Positions 5,770 through 52,732 of a stretch of 64,000 nucleotides of DNA are shown in pieces. Source of the stretch: Bacilli bacterium (GTDB lineage Bacteria > Bacillota_I > Bacilli_A > RF39 > UBA660); contig JAFYER010000012.1 of NCBI GenBank assembly GCA_017544165.1, forward strand, positions 67,401 through 131,400, in the 5' to 3' direction. The notes under the pieces were generated by a model. The model did not search any database, had not been told where the DNA came from, and worked only from the letters and a program-made list of their open reading frames with translations. A program made the translations under genes and the position numbers. Numbering within the stretch: the first letter of the stretch is position 1; each line of letters opens with the position of its first letter.

Positions 5770-6969
5770 CTAAACACTCTTTCCCGCAATATAACCACTT
5801 ATAAAAGCAAAAGCTAAATTATATCCCCCACATATTCCGTCAACATCTAACGTTTCACCAATATAATAAAGACCTTTAACCTTTTTACATTCCATTGTGT
5901 TTTCATCAATTTCTTTTAAAGATATACCGCCAGTACACACTTGAGCCTTATCAAAAGATCCATATCCATCAATTTTGATATGAAAATTTGTTATAGTCTT
6001 AACAAATAATTCTTTTTCTTTATCAGTTAAACTTTTCCAATATGCGTTTGGATTAATATTACATTTTTTAAAGAAAATATTACTAAGTTTATAATTAAAT
6101 AAACTTTCACATAATTCCTTTATATTTTGATTATTAATTATGTTGCTTCTTTCCTCAAAAAAATGATAAAAATCCTCTATAAATGGTGCAAAATTTATAC
6201 TTAAAAAAACATTTTTGCCTTCCTCAAAAGATCTTATTGCTTTGCCACTTAAATTAAAAACACATATACCACTTACACCATTATCTGTAAGCTGTATTTC
6301 TCCTATTTCACTATTAACATATTTATCGTTAATAAATAAAGATACTTTAGCATCCGTTCTAATACCACTCCAATCTTTTAAAAAGTTTTCTGAAGTGTTA
6401 AGACTGACTAATGAAGGTAATACTTTATTAACATTTATATTAAATTTCTTAGCAATTTCATAGCCAAATCCATCACTGCCACTTTTAGGCATTGCTTTAG
6501 ATCCTGTAGCGATTATCAATTTATCACATAAAATAGTTTCATTATCACTAATTATCTTAAAACCATAGTCTTCTTTTTCAATTTTTATTACATTAAAATT
6601 ATACTTAAAATCAATATTTCTCTTTTTCAATTCACAGGCAAATATCTCTCTAATGCTATAAGCAGAATTTGACTGAGGATAATAATAACCATCTTTAATG
6701 CGAGGGTAAATTCCTAAAGATAATAAATAATCATATACCTCTTCGCTATATGATAATATACTTTCTAAGCCATCATAATCATCAGTATAATAGGCATCTT
6801 TTGAAATATTATCATGCCAATAATTACACCTTCCATTTCCTGTAACAAGTAATTTTTTACCACATTTATCATTTTTATCAATTAATATGACATGATTATT
6901 CTCACTTGCCTTCAAAGCAGCAATAATACCGGATGCTCCCGCACCTATAACAGCTATTTTCATATCCAC
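5770..6969 (-). CDS. HI0933/BaiN-like flavoprotein (aminoacetone-oxidase-family FAD-binding protein)
   Basis: N-terminal IAVIGAGASGIIAA GxGxxG motif, the GNGRCN motif typical of the HI0933 family, and C-terminal GGYNLAFAF. Confidence 0.75.
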   Translation of the reverse strand: MDMKIAVIGAGASGIIAALKASENNHVILIDKNDKCGKKLLVTGNGRCNYWHDNISKDAYYTDDYDGLESILSYSEEVYDYLLSLGIYPRIKDGYYYPQSNSAYSIREIFACELKKRNIDFKYNFNVIKIEKEDYGFKIISDNETILCDKLIIATGSKAMPKSGSDGFGYEIAKKFNINVNKVLPSLVSLNTSENFLKDWSGIRTDAKVSLFINDKYVNSEIGEIQLTDNGVSGICVFNLSGKAIRSFEEGKNVFLSINFAPFIEDFYHFFEERSNIINNQNIKELCESLFNYKLSNIFFKKCNINPNAYWKSLTDKEKELFVKTITNFHIKIDGYGSFDKAQVCTGGISLKEIDENTMECKKVKGLYYIGETLDVDGICGGYNLAFAFISGYIAGKSV

Positions 6970-35295: not shown

Positions 35296-37044
35296 ATGCT
35301 AGGGAAAATTTATCAAATAAGCGACAATAACATTTATATTTCATTAAGCGTTGATGCCTACAGTATTCAAAACTTAATGAACTTATATGTTTTGATGCAA
35401 GATTCTACTGGTAGTTATATCGGAGAAATCGTCGATGTTAATCAAAATAAAGCAACGATTAACATGCTTGGCGAATATATAAACGGCAATCTAGTATATG
35501 GTTTTATTAAAAGACCTTCGTTTAATGCTAAAATTGATTTGATATCACCCAACTTTATTCAAAATTTAATTGGTAATTATATTGATGAGAATCATAGTCT
35601 GCTCATCGGCAATTCCCCTTTTTATGAAGACGTCAAAATTTACGCAAATATTAATTATCTATTTGGATCACATATGGCTCTTTTCGGAGTAACTGGTTCT
35701 GGTAAATCTTGCGGTTTTGCAAGTATTATGCAAAAATTAATCAATAAAAGAAATTTGTCAGAAAATATGAACATTATCATATTTGATGCTTATGGCGAAT
35801 ATCATGATGCTTTTAACATTGAAAATAATAATAAATATTCCTTTAAAGCTTATACATCAGGAGTTCATGAACAAGATGAAAAAATATGCATTCCTCCTTG
35901 GCTTTTAGATGTTGACGATTACGCTATTTTACTCGAAGTAACCAGTTCTCATCAACTTACAATAATTGAAAAAGCTTTAAGAAATGTTAATTTATTTAAA
36001 AATCCTAATGGTAAAGTTGTTAAATATAAAAATAGTATTATTGCTTCCGCTTTACTAGACATTTTATTAAGTGGTAGACCTGCTCCTCAAATAAGAGATC
36101 AAATCGTTTCTGCCCTATCAAAATTTAATACTGATATTTTAAATCTTGAAAGCATAATTGCTCAGCCAGGATATAACCGAACTTTAAGACAATGCCTTTT
36201 AATAGACGATAATAATAAAATAAACGCTATTGAACTTATTGCTGCTTTCTTTCAAAGCTTTATTGTCGATGAAATGATAAGCACTTTACCAGATGGTTCA
36301 TATGAATACTCACTTCGCGATTTTGCTGATGCCTTAGAATTTGCTTTAATAAGCGAAGGTATTTGGAAAAGTGAAAAGATTTTTGATGAAGCAAATATTT
36401 TAAAGGTTAGAATTGAATCTCTTCTTAATAGTGAAAATAGTACATTATTTAATTATCAAGGTTTAATATCTATCGAAGATTATATTAAAAGACTATTTAC
36501 TGACAAGTTTGGAAAAAAAGCCCAAATTGTTAATATAAGTATTGATTCTCTTGATGATCGTTTTGCTAAAACCATTGTTAAAATCTTTTCGAAATTATTA
36601 TTTAATTATGCTAAAAGTCTTACAAATAGGGCTTCTACACCATTTAACATTATTTTAGAGGAAGCCCATCGCTATGTCCAAAATGATAGTGATGTTGAAA
36701 TACTTGGCTATAATATATTTGAAAGAATTTCTAAGGAAGGAAGAAAATACGGAGTTTTACTTGGTCTTATTTCACAAAGGCCAAATGAATTATCGTCTAC
36801 ATGTTTAAGTCAATGTAACAACTTTTTTCTTTTCCGAATGACCCACCCAGTTGATGTTGATTATTTATCCAAAGCTATACCTAACATAACCTCACAAATT
36901 ATTAACGAAATGAAAACAGTTCCACCAGGACATGCTATAGTTTTTGGTAATGCTTTCAAAATGCCTACTTTAGTAAAACTAGAATTACCTAATCCAATTC
37001 CTAATAGTAGCAATACGCAAATTGATAATATATGGTTTGAGTAA
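35296..37044 (+). CDS. HerA/FtsK-superfamily ATPase (DUF87-type) with N-terminal HAS-barrel-like domain
   Basis: Walker A motif FGVTGSGKS, Walker B motif FNIILEEAHRYV, and KEGRKYGVLLGLISQRPNELSSTCLSQCNNFFLFRM, typical of HerA/DUF87. Start set at ATG 35296 after AAGGGTGA. Confidence 0.72.
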   Translation: MLGKIYQISDNNIYISLSVDAYSIQNLMNLYVLMQDSTGSYIGEIVDVNQNKATINMLGEYINGNLVYGFIKRPSFNAKIDLISPNFIQNLIGNYIDENHSLLIGNSPFYEDVKIYANINYLFGSHMALFGVTGSGKSCGFASIMQKLINKRNLSENMNIIIFDAYGEYHDAFNIENNNKYSFKAYTSGVHEQDEKICIPPWLLDVDDYAILLEVTSSHQLTIIEKALRNVNLFKNPNGKVVKYKNSIIASALLDILLSGRPAPQIRDQIVSALSKFNTDILNLESIIAQPGYNRTLRQCLLIDDNNKINAIELIAAFFQSFIVDEMISTLPDGSYEYSLRDFADALEFALISEGIWKSEKIFDEANILKVRIESLLNSENSTLFNYQGLISIEDYIKRLFTDKFGKKAQIVNISIDSLDDRFAKTIVKIFSKLLFNYAKSLTNRASTPFNIILEEAHRYVQNDSDVEILGYNIFERISKEGRKYGVLLGLISQRPNELSSTCLSQCNNFFLFRMTHPVDVDYLSKAIPNITSQIINEMKTVPPGHAIVFGNAFKMPTLVKLELPNPIPNSSNTQIDNIWFE

Positions 37045-47508: not shown

Positions 47509-47585
47509 GCGCCCATAGCTCAACTGGATAGAGCGTTAGACTACGGATCTAAAGGTTGGGGGTTCGAATCCCTTTGGGCGTACCA
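47509..47585 (+). tRNA. tRNA-Arg(ACG): tRNA-Arg (anticodon ACG), CCA encoded
   Basis: Cloverleaf folded by hand: acceptor GCGCCCA/TGGGCGT, D arm GCTC...GAGC, anticodon stem TTAGA/TCTAA with loop CTACGGA, T arm GGGGG-TTCGAAT-CCCTT, and A73-CCA. Confidence 0.93.
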
Positions 47586-47666: not shown

Positions 47667-47743
47667 CGAGAAGTAGCACAGCTTGGTAGTGCACCACGCT
47701 TGGGACGTGGGGGTCGCAGGTTCGAATCCTGTCTTCTCGACCA
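47667..47743 (+). tRNA. tRNA-Pro(UGG): tRNA-Pro (anticodon UGG), CCA encoded
   Basis: Acceptor CGAGAAG/CTTCTCG (C1-G72, typical of bacterial tRNA-Pro), anticodon stem CCACG/CGTGG with loop CTTGGGA, T loop TTCGAAT, and A73-CCA. Confidence 0.93.
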
Positions 47744-47751
47744 TTAAAAAT

Positions 47752-47780
47752 AACTAGATAGTTTAATATCTAGTTTTTTT
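47752..47780 (+). terminator. Intrinsic terminator after tRNA-Pro
   Basis: aactagata-gtttaa-tatctagtt followed by T7. Confidence 0.8.
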
Positions 47781-47816
47781 ATGCAATCTGCTACCCCCAT
47801 GGTCTATAATAATATA

Positions 47817-48584
47817 CTAATAATGATTATCTTTGTTGTAATCTATTACATGATCTAAGACAAATAACTTTTTTAAATCATACTTTCCAATTTTAAAATA
47901 GCAGCTGGCCCTATTTTTACCAATACTTGGTCCGTATTTTACTGGAGAAGTTGTTATAGAAACCGATATAATATTGTGCTCTATCAAATTTAAGAATATA
48001 TCAAATGATTTTATTTTATAACATTCTAATTTAAAATACTTAAAAAATTCTTTTCCGTTTGTTTTTTTAGAAAGTGCATGAACAAAACCTAAATATTTTA
48101 GTTTGCCATTTAATTTTTCTTTAATATCATCGAACAGCCAATATGCACAACTATCAATAAGATTATTATTGATATCAAATATAAATAAAATTATTTTTTC
48201 ATTTTCCCTGTTAACATATAGATTAAAAAAATATCTATTACATATTAAAGTATTTTTTGAACAATAGAACTCCGCATTTAATTTTTTATCATCATCACTT
48301 GAATAATCGTAATAACCAAATGTCCTTCTTATACGATCTATTTCTGGGAATTCCTCTCCCCAAGGTGCAAGTCCAAAAAGCGTAATTGGATAATTAGAAG
48401 TAATTCTCTGTGTCTTAATTTCAATATTATCGAAATCAGGATAAGAAAAATTATCTTCAGACTTTCCAAGCAACTGTTCAAAAGTCATTCCAACTCCATT
48501 AGAAATTGAATTAATGCTTTCAGTCCAACCTCTAGCGTGAATTTCTTGAAATACTTTATCAAGATTATCAAATACCTTTTTCAT
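47817..48584 (-). CDS. MvaI/BcnI-family PD-(D/E)xK restriction-endonuclease-like protein (orphan)
   Basis: The stretch GMTFEQLLGKSEDNFSYPDFDNIEIKTQ...ITLFG...IRRTFGYYD...KKLNAEF parallels the BcnI stretch ILERQFGVQENNITLGDLGEFELKG...LTLFH...IFNRFGYV...KKKLFTTI as I remember it. The PD...ExK catalytic triad is intact. Confidence 0.55.
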   Translation of the reverse strand: MKKVFDNLDKVFQEIHARGWTESINSISNGVGMTFEQLLGKSEDNFSYPDFDNIEIKTQRITSNYPITLFGLAPWGEEFPEIDRIRRTFGYYDYSSDDDKKLNAEFYCSKNTLICNRYFFNLYVNRENEKIILFIFDINNNLIDSCAYWLFDDIKEKLNGKLKYLGFVHALSKKTNGKEFFKYFKLECYKIKSFDIFLNLIEHNIISVSITTSPVKYGPSIGKNRASCYFKIGKYDLKKLFVLDHVIDYNKDNHY

Positions 48585-48637
48585 AAAAAAACCTCCCTAA
48601 TGGAGATTATTTTAAGACATCAGTTAAATAAAAAATG

Positions 48638-49609
48638 TCATTTTTTGTCAGATATGTTTTGCACTTGAACTACTGTAATTGCAACAGCTCCAACGATATC
48701 ATCAATGCTACATCCTCTTGATAAATCATTAACTGGTTTATTTAAACCTTGGGTAATTGGGCCATAGGCACCAGCTTTAGCTAGTCTTTGAACAAGTTTA
48801 TAGGCACTATTGCCAGCATCTAAGTTAGGAAAAACTAAAACATTTGCTTTACCTGCAATGTCAGAATCAGGACATTTTAATTTGGCAACTTCCCTATCTA
48901 TGGCGGCATCAACTTGTAATTCACCTTCAATTTTTAAATCAGTGTATTTTTCTTTAGCAATTTTTGTGGCATTTACTACTTTATCGACAAATTCATGTTT
49001 AGCAGAACCCTTAGTTGAATGAGAAATCATTGCTACATATGCTTCGTTATTTGTAAGTGTTTTGAAGCTGTCTGCAGATTCTTTAGCTATAATGGCGAGT
49101 TCCTCTTCATTTGGATTTTGAACTAAACCACAATCAGCAAAAACAAAAGTGCCATTTAAACCGTACTCACAGTTTGGTACTTCCATTAAAAAAAATGAAG
49201 ATACTACACTACTTCCTTTTATTATTTGAAGGGCTGGCCTTAAGGTATTAGCCGTCGAATGACAAGCACCTGAAACAATACCATCAGCTAAGCCTTCATG
49301 CAAAAGCATACAGGCAAAATACATATAATCATTTAAAATTAAATCTTTCGCTTCTTCATAAGTAAGGCCTTTTTCTTTACGCATTTCATATAGCTTATTT
49401 ATAAATTCTTCTGTTTTATCATACTTCAAAGGATTTATTACTGTTACTTGTTCATTTATGACTTTATCGCCAATTAAAATGACATCAGCTATACCCTCTT
49501 TTTGAATAATTTCCGCAGCTTTTAAAACTCTTTCATCCATTGTTTCTGGTAAAACAATTCTTTTTTTATCGCTTTTAGCTTTTTGAATGATTTCATTAAT
49601 AAAACTCAT
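48638..49609 (-). CDS. pta: Phosphate acetyltransferase
   Basis: MSFINEIIQKAKSDKKRIVLPE N-terminus and C-terminal GPITQGLNKPVNDLSRGC. Start set at ATG 49609 after the AGGTGA SD. Confidence 0.9.
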   Translation of the reverse strand: MSFINEIIQKAKSDKKRIVLPETMDERVLKAAEIIQKEGIADVILIGDKVINEQVTVINPLKYDKTEEFINKLYEMRKEKGLTYEEAKDLILNDYMYFACMLLHEGLADGIVSGACHSTANTLRPALQIIKGSSVVSSFFLMEVPNCEYGLNGTFVFADCGLVQNPNEEELAIIAKESADSFKTLTNNEAYVAMISHSTKGSAKHEFVDKVVNATKIAKEKYTDLKIEGELQVDAAIDREVAKLKCPDSDIAGKANVLVFPNLDAGNSAYKLVQRLAKAGAYGPITQGLNKPVNDLSRGCSIDDIVGAVAITVVQVQNISDKK

Positions 49610-49660
49610 ATTATCACCTACTTTATTTATGACACATTTATTAATTATTTGCAATCATTT

Positions 49661-52600
49661 TTACATTTCTTTCAAATCACCATTCATAATTGAATATAAA
49701 TATACTTTAGCATCTTTTCCCATTGCACTTTTAATATATTTTTTATAAATATTTAATTGTTTTTGATAAGCATCATCATCAATATTTTTTAATTTATAGT
49801 CTACTATTTTTATTTCATCATTGTTTACCAGCAAAAGATCAATAATACCATGAGTATCGTCAAAAATAAATTCATATTCTTTATAAATCTTTGTATCGCA
49901 TGTAATATTTAGTTTTTCTTTTAAAATAGTTAGTTCTTTTTTATAAGGAAAGTCATCAGGTATATTGAAAAAATCGACAAGTTCAAATGCTTCATGAACA
50001 TTACTCCCATATTTTAATAAATCATTTTCCTTCCTAGTTATAACTTTATTTATTTCTTTCGAGGCATGTTTTTTACTAACTATTTCATTATTAATTTTTA
50101 TATTTTTAAAAATGATTCTTTCTTTTTCAGTTACTTTATCTAAACTTTTACTATTTTTCTTAAGATAGTCTTTACTCATTTCAAGTGTATTTAAATCTAT
50201 CTTTTGAATATATTTTTCAATATTACCATTAATCGAATTTAAAATATCAAGAAAAGAATTATATCTTTTGCGAATAACTGTATCTACGAGCCCTTTTACA
50301 TGAAGTTTAACTTCTTCGTTTATTGGACTTACGATTATCATTTTTTCTTTAGCTCTTGTCATAGCTACATACAAAAGCCTTATTTTTTCGGAAATGTCAT
50401 TTAAATTGTATTTATCTATAAGTAAATCATTGGTAATTATTGTACCTATTCCTTCGTTAAAATATGGTGTAATAATTCCATATGTATTATCAAAGGTAAA
50501 TCTTTCTTTAATATCACTTTTATTAAAGGTTTTATAAAAACCAGAAAAATAACATACTGGAAACTCTAAACCTTTTGATTTATGAATATTCATAAGTTTT
50601 ACACTGTTTGTTTCCTTACTATTATCTTTATATTTAATTTCGTAATTACTTTCAATCATTTGGCATAAATAATCACAGAACATTATATAGGTATAACCTA
50701 AATTACTTAGATTGTTAACTATATCTAAAAGATTATCTATTCTAATTAAAATATCATCGACATTACCTATTTTGCTTATTTTTTCATAAAAGTTAAAATC
50801 TTTTAAAATACTTTTAATAATATCTACAGCATTTAGATTATTTATATTTCTTGCAATATTTAAACACTTTTGATAAATTTCTGTTTTTTCATAATCACTA
50901 TTATTAATAATCTTTAAAATATCATTATCACTTAATTCAAAAAGAAATGATCGTGCAATAGAAACAAAAGCATATTTAAAATTAGTATCAATTTGATTAT
51001 ATTTTATTTTTAAAATGAGCGTATAAATATTTTTAATAAGTAATATATCTATTTCACTAGTAAGTTTTCGATCTTCATAAATATGAATCGGTAATCCTTT
51101 ATATTCAAAAACTTTTCGATATGTATTAAAGGCACTACCCCTATCCATAATTATACAAAAATCTGAATATGCGGCATCTCGAAGTGCATTTGTCTTACTA
51201 TCAAAGACTTGATAATGATTTTTAATTTTATTTATGATGTCATTTGCAATAATAAAACTTTCCGTTTCTTCCTTAGTAAAACTACTTTCATCATAAGTTA
51301 AAATATCTAAATCATAGTTTTGATTAGCCATCAAATCAAAAGCATTATTACCATATACCATCTGATGATCTTTTTGGTAATTAGCTCCTCCTATAAAATC
51401 ATCCATGATTAAATTAAAAATCTCATTAATTGCATTTAAAACATTACTGCGTGACCGAAAGTTTTTAAGTAAATCAATTTTAAGGCCACCGATACCTTTG
51501 GTGAAACTATCATATTTGTTTTTGAAAATAATTGGATTAGCATTACGAAAACCATAAATAGATTGTTTAATATCGCCAACCATATAGACATTATCATTTT
51601 CAATAAGACTTATAAAGGCCTCTTGAACATCATTAGTATCTTGATATTCATCAATCATGATTTCTTTATAAAATTCTTTAATTTCCTTTAAAATATCTTC
51701 GTTTTCTTTCAAAAGATTAATAGCCATCATTTCAATGTCAATAAATTCATATAAATCATTTTCATGTTTATATTTATTAATTCTTTCTTCGAAAATGTTT
51801 ATTATCTCAATAATAACTTCAGTATAATCTTTAGCTATAGCAAATGAATCATAGATATCTTCTATGTTATTAAATCTTAAATAGCTCTTTATTTTAGTAA
51901 TTGAATTAGAAATATTTTCTTTAAAAGGTTTAATTTCTTCGTCATCACTAGTAAGTCTTGGCAAACTTACATCGATGTTTGTCTTTAAGTCATCATAACT
52001 TTTACTTCTTATAAGATTTCCTAACTTTTTAGATAGTTCATCATAATAACTTGAACATCCACTTTCAGAAATAATCGTCATATTTGTTTCAATATTATTT
52101 ATTTCCTCATAGATTAAATCCATGTACTTATTTAATAAACTATCTATATATTCTTCATTAAAATATTTATCTATATAACTATCTAAATATTCCTTTTTAT
52201 CAACTTTTTGATCAATTAAACTGATAATATGTAATATTTCTTGTTTTAATTCTTTATCATTTTTAATACAAAAATCATTAATTAATTTAGTAAATTTTTC
52301 ATCTGAAGATTCATAAAATTCATCAAAAATATTGTCTAGTAATTTTTCTTTATAGATACTTATAAAGCTATCATCAACAATACTTAACGATGCAGATACA
52401 TTTAAAACATAACTATATTTTTTAACTAGGGAAAGACAATAAGAATCAAATGTTGTAATATAACTACTTTCCAGTAAATCAAGATTATCTTTTAAATTGG
52501 GATTCTCGCTAATTTTTTTCCTGATTCTTTCTTTCATTTCCCCGGCCGCAGCATTAGTAAAGGTTAGAATCAAAAGCTCATTTATCCTTATTCCATTTTT

Positions 52601-52732
52601 AAGATGCTCAATTACTCTTTCAGATAGAACAGCTGTTTTACCAGAACCGGCTCCCGCAGATACTATAATATTGCTACCTTTTTTTTCGATAGCATCCTTT
52701 TGATCTTTTGTCCAATTAGGCATCTTCATCAC
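49661..52732 (-). CDS. addA: ATP-dependent helicase/nuclease subunit A (AddA)
   Basis: UvrD-type motifs SAGAGSGKT, MIDEYQDTN and VKLMNIHKSKGLEF, plus the C-terminal RecB-type nuclease motif GIIDLLL...IVDYK. Confidence 0.9.
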   Translation of the reverse strand: MMKMPNWTKDQKDAIEKKGSNIIVSAGAGSGKTAVLSERVIEHLKNGIRINELLILTFTNAAAGEMKERIRKKISENPNLKDNLDLLESSYITTFDSYCLSLVKKYSYVLNVSASLSIVDDSFISIYKEKLLDNIFDEFYESSDEKFTKLINDFCIKNDKELKQEILHIISLIDQKVDKKEYLDSYIDKYFNEEYIDSLLNKYMDLIYEEINNIETNMTIISESGCSSYYDELSKKLGNLIRSKSYDDLKTNIDVSLPRLTSDDEEIKPFKENISNSITKIKSYLRFNNIEDIYDSFAIAKDYTEVIIEIINIFEERINKYKHENDLYEFIDIEMMAINLLKENEDILKEIKEFYKEIMIDEYQDTNDVQEAFISLIENDNVYMVGDIKQSIYGFRNANPIIFKNKYDSFTKGIGGLKIDLLKNFRSRSNVLNAINEIFNLIMDDFIGGANYQKDHQMVYGNNAFDLMANQNYDLDILTYDESSFTKEETESFIIANDIINKIKNHYQVFDSKTNALRDAAYSDFCIIMDRGSAFNTYRKVFEYKGLPIHIYEDRKLTSEIDILLIKNIYTLILKIKYNQIDTNFKYAFVSIARSFLFELSDNDILKIINNSDYEKTEIYQKCLNIARNINNLNAVDIIKSILKDFNFYEKISKIGNVDDILIRIDNLLDIVNNLSNLGYTYIMFCDYLCQMIESNYEIKYKDNSKETNSVKLMNIHKSKGLEFPVCYFSGFYKTFNKSDIKERFTFDNTYGIITPYFNEGIGTIITNDLLIDKYNLNDISEKIRLLYVAMTRAKEKMIIVSPINEEVKLHVKGLVDTVIRKRYNSFLDILNSINGNIEKYIQKIDLNTLEMSKDYLKKNSKSLDKVTEKERIIFKNIKINNEIVSKKHASKEINKVITRKENDLLKYGSNVHEAFELVDFFNIPDDFPYKKELTILKEKLNITCDTKIYKEYEFIFDDTHGIIDLLLVNNDEIKIVDYKLKNIDDDAYQKQLNIYKKYIKSAMGKDAKVYLYSIMNGDLKEM

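Follow-up and report, generated by a model that had tools for sequence, protein, structure and literature searches.

A solitary MvaI/BcnI-family nuclease in a tRNA-Pro slot of uncultured small-genome Bacilli is unlikely to act as an ordinary restriction enzyme

Introduction

How can a bacterium keep a gene for an apparently intact restriction endonuclease that has no methylase beside it? Restriction enzymes are expected to be lethal without a methylase, and solitary ones are usually dismissed as debris. The question is raised here by a single gene lying between a tRNA-Arg/tRNA-Pro pair and pta in an uncultured member of the Bacilli. The window (the whole 64-kb stretch of DNA that was analyzed) had been annotated in an earlier note from its letters, and the gene was read there as an orphan of the MvaI/BcnI type. 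Solitary restriction endonuclease (REase) genes have been catalogued and are largely unexplained, examples being a Bacteroides HpaII-like group and PacI; the proposals made for them are a change of function or a lack of sites (Ershova et al. 2012, PMC3488263). A literature search for this MvaI-like solitary clade (PF15515/MvaI_BcnI) found no paper.

Results

The nuclease gene and its locus

The features of the locus, in window coordinates, are as follows.

47509..47585, plus strand: tRNA-Arg(ACG), partner of tRNA-Pro in this genus, convergent with the nuclease gene
47667..47743, plus strand: tRNA-Pro(UGG), convergent with the nuclease gene and 73 nt beyond its stop; conserved anchor of the clade
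47754..47780, no strand: hairpin CTAGATA-N6-TATCTAG with A-run and T-run flanks, kept in G010 (the closest species) and in orthologous loci
47782..47804, minus strand: degenerate inverted tRNA-Pro copy, positions about 37-56 of the tRNA (local alignment versus shuffles)
47817..48584, minus strand: coding sequence of the solitary MvaI/BcnI-family nuclease, catalytic residues E35, D49, E54 and K56
48592..48597, minus strand: Shine-Dalgarno GGGAGG, 7 nt 5' of the ATG, as read from the sequence
48638..49654, minus strand: pta (phosphate acetyltransferase), upstream neighbor; a flank unconserved outside the sub-clade
49661-52732, minus strand: addA

The open reading frame encodes a whole-length PD-(D/E)xK nuclease of 255 aa. 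A Pfam profile search matched PF15515 over residues 12 to 241 of 255 (E = 3.2e-38), with 132.4 bits against a curated cut-off of 25 bits, and R.MvaI (PDB 2oa9) matched the protein at 1e-24 in a phmmer search. NCBIfam and PHROGs searches gave no match for the nuclease, and PADLOC returned generic Type II REase models only, with no homology to any established Type IV family. An AF2 model built on 11 orthologues (pLDDT 81.7) had the two-lobed DNA-clamping fold of the MvaI/BcnI family. In a Foldseek comparison, this model superposed on the MvaI-DNA complex 2oaa with a TM of 0.80 to 0.82, BcnI ranked second, and MvaI and BcnI chains were the only matches at an E value of 0.001 or below. The membership and the intact catalytic motif claimed in the earlier note were therefore upheld, as was the expected likeness to MvaI and BcnI; MutH, to which a likeness had also been suggested, was absent from the significant matches.

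The MvaI active site consists of Glu36, Asp50, Glu55 and Lys57 (PMC1874612). When a 3-residue numbering offset of the PDB chain was allowed for, these aligned with E35, D49, E54 and K56 of the nuclease, whose YPDFDNIEIK motif occupies residues 47 to 56, and all four were unchanged in 11 of 11 orthologues. Comparison with the 91% identical orthologue gave a dN/dS of 0.07 for the nuclease, 0.17 for pta, 0.19 for addA and 0.02 for ezrA, which points to strong purifying selection on the nuclease gene. By analogy, the protein is presumably a monomer. R.MvaI (CC^WGG; 2oa9/2oaa), a Type IIP monomer of the same Pfam family, shares with it a whole-length identity of 27 to 28%, the two-lobed fold and the E-D-E-K site, but the window nuclease lacks an m4C methylase partner, has replaced base contacts and is chromosomally fixed beside tRNA-Pro. 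R.BcnI (CC^SGG; 2odh/2odi), likewise a Type IIP monomer, has the same family and fold (Foldseek E of ~1e-10, TM of 0.62 to 0.70) and uses a single active site, but it is more distant (18 to 19% identity) and is part of a complete restriction-modification (R-M) system.

A 53-nt spacer separates the pta stop (48638-48640) from the nuclease gene. Since a promoter scan found no promoter-like site in this spacer, the gene is probably co-transcribed with pta. The hairpin at 47754..47780 is likely a bidirectional terminator common to the nuclease gene and the tRNA-Arg/tRNA-Pro unit. The inverted tRNA-Pro copy just inside it, which spans the anticodon loop to the T-stem (tRNA positions about 34-56 across relatives), marks the inner edge of a variable slot and was significant in the window and in L014, L016 and L115 (p < 0.005, local alignment versus shuffles); it was also seen just beyond the tRNA-Pro terminator in L076, L103 and genomes G006, G007, G014 and G015. 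The idea that it belongs to the nuclease gene was rejected, because loci with different cargo, or with none, also have it; it is a feature of the locus and may represent an old recombination boundary. A search of the 64-kb window for direct repeats of the tRNA-Pro 3' end found none at up to 3 mismatches. In L070, the spacer between the nuclease gene and tRNA-Pro (5807-6125) contains an additional, truncated copy of the 3' part of tRNA-Pro as well as a duplication of ~60 nt, which suggests a past rearrangement at the slot.

A functional link to addAB or pta was rejected, as that flank is not conserved; the repair connection on the addAB side raised in the earlier note fared no better, G020 having a P-type ATPase on that side. 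A HerA/DUF87-type ATPase (c60) lies directly upstream of, and divergent from, the nuclease gene in L098 and L100, and a solitary HerA-like ATPase is encoded at 35296-37044 of the window, 11 kb from the nuclease gene.

Absence of a methylase from the genome and from related loci

The assembly containing the window (G000; 13 contigs, 1.05 Mb, 28.9% GC, 87.8% complete) had no match to PF01555, PF00145 or PF02086 (Dam), and its sole PF02384 match was weak and corresponded to PrmC, beside prfA. Among 832 open reading frames of at least 150 aa, the amino-methylase motif IV, (D/N/S)PP(Y/F/W/H), was detected only in ThiI, a 240-aa NPPF protein and PrmC, and the single C5-motif match was an AMP-binding enzyme. 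A tblastn search of the assembly with five methylases from relatives found nothing. The immediate neighbors are pta and tRNA-Pro, not the adjacent methylase of a Type II R-M system. These results indicated that the orphan state of the nuclease is genuine in this 87.8%-complete assembly, and the earlier description of a single gene beside tRNA-Pro with no methylase, controller or integrase was confirmed and, for the methylase, extended from 64 kb to the assembly.

The same arrangement was found in relatives. No open reading frame with a methylase motif was detected within 6 kb in any of 45 related Bacilli-type loci, a count that rests on motif scans, the accompanying Pfam tally of 141 neighbor proteins covering the top 25 families. 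An adjacent C5 methylase was present in all four of the distant proteobacterial or Akkermansia relatives, whose proteins are longer. In hand tallies over 150 genomes, C5 methylases were found in 25 of 53 carriers and 43 of 97 non-carriers (p = 0.86). Full-length PF01555 matches, at a threshold of 60 bits that misses weak true methylases, were found in 10 of 53 carriers and 37 of 97 non-carriers (p = 0.017, uncorrected for relatedness). Neither family was detected in 24 of the 53 carrier genomes (at least 92% completeness). Genome G013 has two MvaI-family members and no PF01555 or PF00145 match, and G020 carries an orthologue of the nuclease together with a C5 methylase. A lack of a cognate methylase and a presence independent of host methylases, both observed for the nuclease, are properties of Type IV/IIM enzymes.

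Recognition residues and genomic sites

The base contacts of MvaI are made by D207, R209, H223-D224-H225 and R230. The window nuclease has S, T, N-R-A (with a one-residue deletion) and K at these positions and so lacks the contacts of MvaI-type CCWGG specificity, and other solitary subfamilies differ yet again. The only sampled member with a linked methylase, that of G131, keeps D207, R209, H223-D224-H225 and R230. This canonical MvaI orthologue shares bacterial family, protein family and length with the window nuclease, but it groups with MvaI in the tree, has all of the MvaI recognition residues and a convergent 418-aa SPPY methylase, and is not beside a tRNA. Because the recognition residues have been replaced, neither CCWGG nor CCSGG specificity should be assumed for the window nuclease, and the label of cytosine-site restriction enzyme used in the earlier note was not substantiated.

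The orthologues of G020 (L009:3598-4365) and G013 (L010:8541-9299) are 58% identical, and their recognition-lobe loop, at about residues 205 to 232, is almost wholly different. This loop is the most divergent stretch between the two proteins, which hints that specificity is diversifying within the orthologous group.

The assembly holds 382 CCWGG sites (observed/expected ratio [O/E] of 0.73) and 135 CCSGG sites (O/E of 0.66), and an enzyme of MvaI or BcnI specificity would therefore be self-destructive. Avoidance of sites, the solution associated with PacI, was rejected: no word was missing among the 4- to 7-mers with an expectation of at least 30, the range covered by the test, counts at 29% GC being uninformative for longer GC-rich sites. 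The most under-represented word was GATC (O/E of 0.51); CATG (0.67) and CASTG (0.58) came next. The assembly yielded neither Dam nor a GATC-type R-M system, nor a DNA methylase of any other kind.

Co-divergence with the flanks and occupancy of the slot

Orthologues of about 91, 71, 70, 50 and 46% identity (91 to 45% overall) hold the same slot. The 91, 71 and 70% identical proteins are encoded on metagenome contigs in the order addB-addA-pta-gene-(tRNAs)-ezrA-nifS-thiI-ackA, and the 50 and 46% orthologues come from two species of the genus, where they again adjoin these tRNAs and ezrA, although in one species the gene on the opposite side differs. A word-index homologue search returned 12 close relatives only. 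Identities of EzrA and of the nuclease fell together (97/91, 90/71, 86/69, 83/58, 71/49 and 71/45%), and divergence of the orthologues was in step with EzrA, NifS and ThiI. The discordant phylogeny and the near-identical copies in diverged hosts that mark homing were not found, nuclease identity being monotonic with that of EzrA.

When related genomes were compared, as the earlier note had proposed, the gene was present in 6 of the 22 species of the genus. The closest species, G010 (EzrA 86%), has a clean tRNA-Pro/terminator/pta junction with no remnant, and tRNA-Pro is identical in carrier and empty-site genomes. Species whose EzrA is near-identical to that of G013 hold other genes in the slot. 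By Pfam, the cargo of these siblings comprised Abi_2, Fic/DOC, a HipA-like kinase, a CdiA_C-like toxin domain and DUF3800, mostly as single genes, located 3' of or between tRNA-Arg and tRNA-Pro (loci L053, L057, L058, L059 and L063 in G016, G015, G014, G007 and G001). The slot after tRNA-Pro is thus a hotspot for conflict genes, in which the nuclease has resided for a long time but has been lost or replaced repeatedly. The suggestion of a tRNA insertion hotspot was thus supported by the variable cargo and the empty site in G010; a recent insertion was not, given the co-diverging orthologues at 91 to 46% identity. Two further occupants, of 275 aa in G012 and 322 aa in G019, had no Pfam match.

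Breadth of the clade and its tRNA anchors

A profile search of 1.8 billion representative proteins detected 1,530 family members; the orthologue cluster scored 416 bits and the next best 219. A pattern search of species genomes returned 50 loci, 45 of which were from uncultured small-genome Bacilli ('Tenericutes'/'Bacilli' metagenome-assembled genomes [MAGs], Candidatus Scybalousia and CAG:302). In a prevalence sample of 150 species of the order, PF15515 was found in 55 of 149 species (37%) and 32 of 86 genera of the taxonomic family and in none of 14 control genomes.

A convergent tRNA-Pro(UGG) was located 62 to 530 bp past the stop codon in 25 of the 45 loci, and the other flank of these loci varied, being mutY, the mraZ cluster, pta or an ATPase. 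A second group was co-directional and 143 to 291 bp 3' of tRNA-Met(CAT)/tRNA-Leu(UAG). In the tree, this Leu-anchored group was monophyletic (100/99) and sister to the clade of the window, which argues for one relocation, the position being inherited and not repeatedly targeted. A 140-aa gene beside the Leu-anchored subfamily was considered as a partner or immunity protein and rejected; it is a conserved flank and occurs in G000 without the nuclease.

Relatives were rare in viral contigs, with 8 loci detected, several at contig ends. In L119 and L120 (IMG/VR), they lie at the extreme contig ends, which fits host DNA flanking tRNA-site prophages and not phage genes.

A preferred reading of the nuclease

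The solitary nuclease is unlikely to act as an ordinary restriction enzyme. The reading that we tentatively place first, with some reserve, is a defense nuclease that works independently of a methylase, spares unmodified host DNA and is probably modification-dependent. The protein would be an active, monomeric, two-lobed endonuclease of the MvaI fold working without a cognate methyltransferase; activity is suggested by the invariant catalytic tetrad, the intact fold, the dN/dS of 0.07 and the strong ribosome-binding site (RBS). As a defense or conflict nuclease, it would act on a substrate absent from the host's own, apparently unmethylated chromosome. Base-modified DNA would be the likeliest such substrate, making the protein a Type IV/IIM-like enzyme derived from a Type IIP ancestor. 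Such an enzyme would cleave or nick phage or plasmid DNA that arrives with methylation acquired in another host; failing that, the target would be rare or unusual.

This reading is favored because no methylase was found in the assembly or at the 45 loci, because presence of the gene is unrelated to methylase content and because the slot holds toxin or Abi genes in siblings. It is also favored because solitary members have lost the residues that read CCWGG while the methylase-linked G131 protein keeps them. The fold also has a precedent for methyl-dependent nicking: MvaI nicks CCGGG only when the site is C5-methylated (PMC3001055). Type IIM and IV enzymes are alike in needing no cognate methylase. 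Of the options raised in the earlier note, a methyl-directed activity and a new single-gene defense function are still the best candidates.

Several observations weaken these preferences. About half of the carrier genomes, including G020, also hold C5 methylases, whose modification patterns an enzyme dependent on modification would need to leave uncut. It is unusual for a defense gene to be retained in a single slot while synonymous sites diverge to saturation. The nuclease has no sequence relation to the established Type IV families, its dependence on modification is putative, and because the assembly is 88% complete, an unlinked methylase may exist.

The clade resembles the solitary REases catalogued previously in that its members are whole-length, have no linked or identifiable methylase and are orthologous across species (PMC3488263). 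It differs in being much larger (37% of the species of one family), tRNA-anchored and altered in its recognition residues, with no 4- to 7-mer purged from the genome. A nuclease of the MvaI fold, catalytically intact by its residues, has thus been kept under strong selection without a methylase in more than one-third of the species in this family of uncultured, small-genome gut Bacilli, and its DNA-reading residues have been re-made. If modification-dependent, it would define a new Type IV/IIM family with a monomeric Type IIP enzyme as its evolutionary source, and it might serve as a new reagent for nicking or methylation-sensitive cleavage; cleavage of unmodified DNA would instead point to a methylase-free form of self/non-self discrimination. 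Either way, the tRNA-Pro slot is a compact hotspot for finding single-gene conflict systems.

Alternative explanations

Ranking second after defense, and unlikely, is domestication, whereby a former restriction nuclease would have taken a job in host DNA metabolism outside any defense system, e.g., as a site- or structure-specific nickase in repair, recombination or chromosome processing. Vertical inheritance of position and sequence, divergence that tracks EzrA, selection as strong as on the housekeeping neighbors and presence in 37% of the family's species would all suit such a job, yet only 6 of 22 species of the genus have the gene, the closest species has a clean empty site and in near-identical siblings the slot is occupied by toxin or Abi genes. 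The genes mutY-NUDIX-xth adjoin some relatives and addAB is close to the window copy, but these repair-gene neighbors are not conserved, and recognition-lobe residues vary between subfamilies, which would not be expected if the protein had a single conserved task in the host. Its fold is akin to that of MutH, the MutH/Sau3AI domains having a related catalytic lobe and acting as monomeric single-strand cutters without a methylase of their own (PMC1874612). A MutH-type nickase works with Dam methylation and a MutL that lacks endonuclease activity, whereas the genome of the window, which has MutS, encodes a MutL that is nuclease-proficient by motif, with DQHA(X)2E(X)4E (motifs DQHAAYERINYE, ACK and CPHGRP), and it lacks Dam. 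A MutH-like repair role, one of the options in the earlier note, was accordingly weak and was rejected, there being no significant MutH fold match either.

It is improbable that the gene encodes an ordinary Type II enzyme of a split R-M system whose methylase lies in the unassembled 12% or is too divergent to be recognized. R-M systems with separated genes are documented (PMC3488263), the assembly is 87.8% complete, and weak methylases can escape thresholds, as illustrated by the G131 methylase, which scores only 30 bits on PF01555. Against this, profiles, motifs and tblastn found no DNA methylase in the assembly, a linked methylase was present at 0 of 45 loci, G013 has two family members without a PF01555 or PF00145 match, and 24 of 53 carriers (at least 92% completeness) have neither family, the association being absent or negative. 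The ordinary split system named in the earlier note as a possible refutation is thus unlikely, since presence of the gene does not track methylases across 150 genomes.

Distinctly improbable is a toxin-like or abortive-infection nuclease able to cut host DNA and restrained by control of expression, not methylation, for example by low expression or by interference from the convergent, heavily transcribed tRNA unit. The filling of the slot by toxin or Abi genes in siblings, the convergence with tRNA-Pro kept in 25 of 45 loci and the lack of a partner gene are consistent with such restraint. However, a terminator lies between the nuclease gene and the tRNA, the sister clade is co-directional and 3' of tRNA-Leu, and the strong RBS, together with probable read-through from pta, points to steady expression.

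A selfish, free-standing endonuclease of the homing type that persists beside a conserved tRNA gene was judged very improbable. It would need no methylase and would account for distinct subfamilies tied to distinct tRNAs (Pro-UGG or Leu-UAG) whatever the other flank, as well as for a patchy distribution that includes clean empty sites and a single pseudogene. However, gene and flanks have diverged together, and near-identical copies in distant hosts are absent; the monophyly of the Leu-anchored clade argues for one relocation and not repeated targeting, tRNA-Pro is identical in carrier and empty-site genomes, and the inverted tRNA fragment is present whatever the cargo.

An equally slight probability was given to a relic that is catalytically silent or not expressed, or to a protein that binds DNA but has lost the ability to cut it. 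Solitary REase homologues showing no activity are on record, e.g., HindVP, BthVORF1149P and PaeR7I without its methylase (PMC3488263), but here the four catalytic residues are invariant, dN/dS is 0.07, and the fold is intact and whole-length behind a strong RBS. Scarcely credible is a functional coupling to the tRNA gene beside which the nuclease has persisted throughout the family, in which, for example, expression of a self-cutting nuclease would be gated by convergent tRNA transcription and unleashed when phage infection shuts off host tRNA transcription, as abortive infection without a protein antitoxin or methylase.

A second tRNA slot

A second tRNA slot lies ~2 to 4 kb beyond the end of the window (G000:C8:133388-135268), in the order 225-aa Cys/His-rich protein, 139-aa protein, tRNA-Met/Ile2(CAT), tRNA-Leu(UAG) and cargo. 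In relatives, this slot is the home of the Leu-anchored MvaI-like subfamily. A Leu-type member in G016 (G016:C3:88440-88682) has been reduced to a fragment with an in-frame TGA and TAA and is a pseudogene. In G000, the second slot holds a 106-aa open reading frame 58 nt after tRNA-Leu, whose product is putatively MazG-like from its N-terminal sequence.
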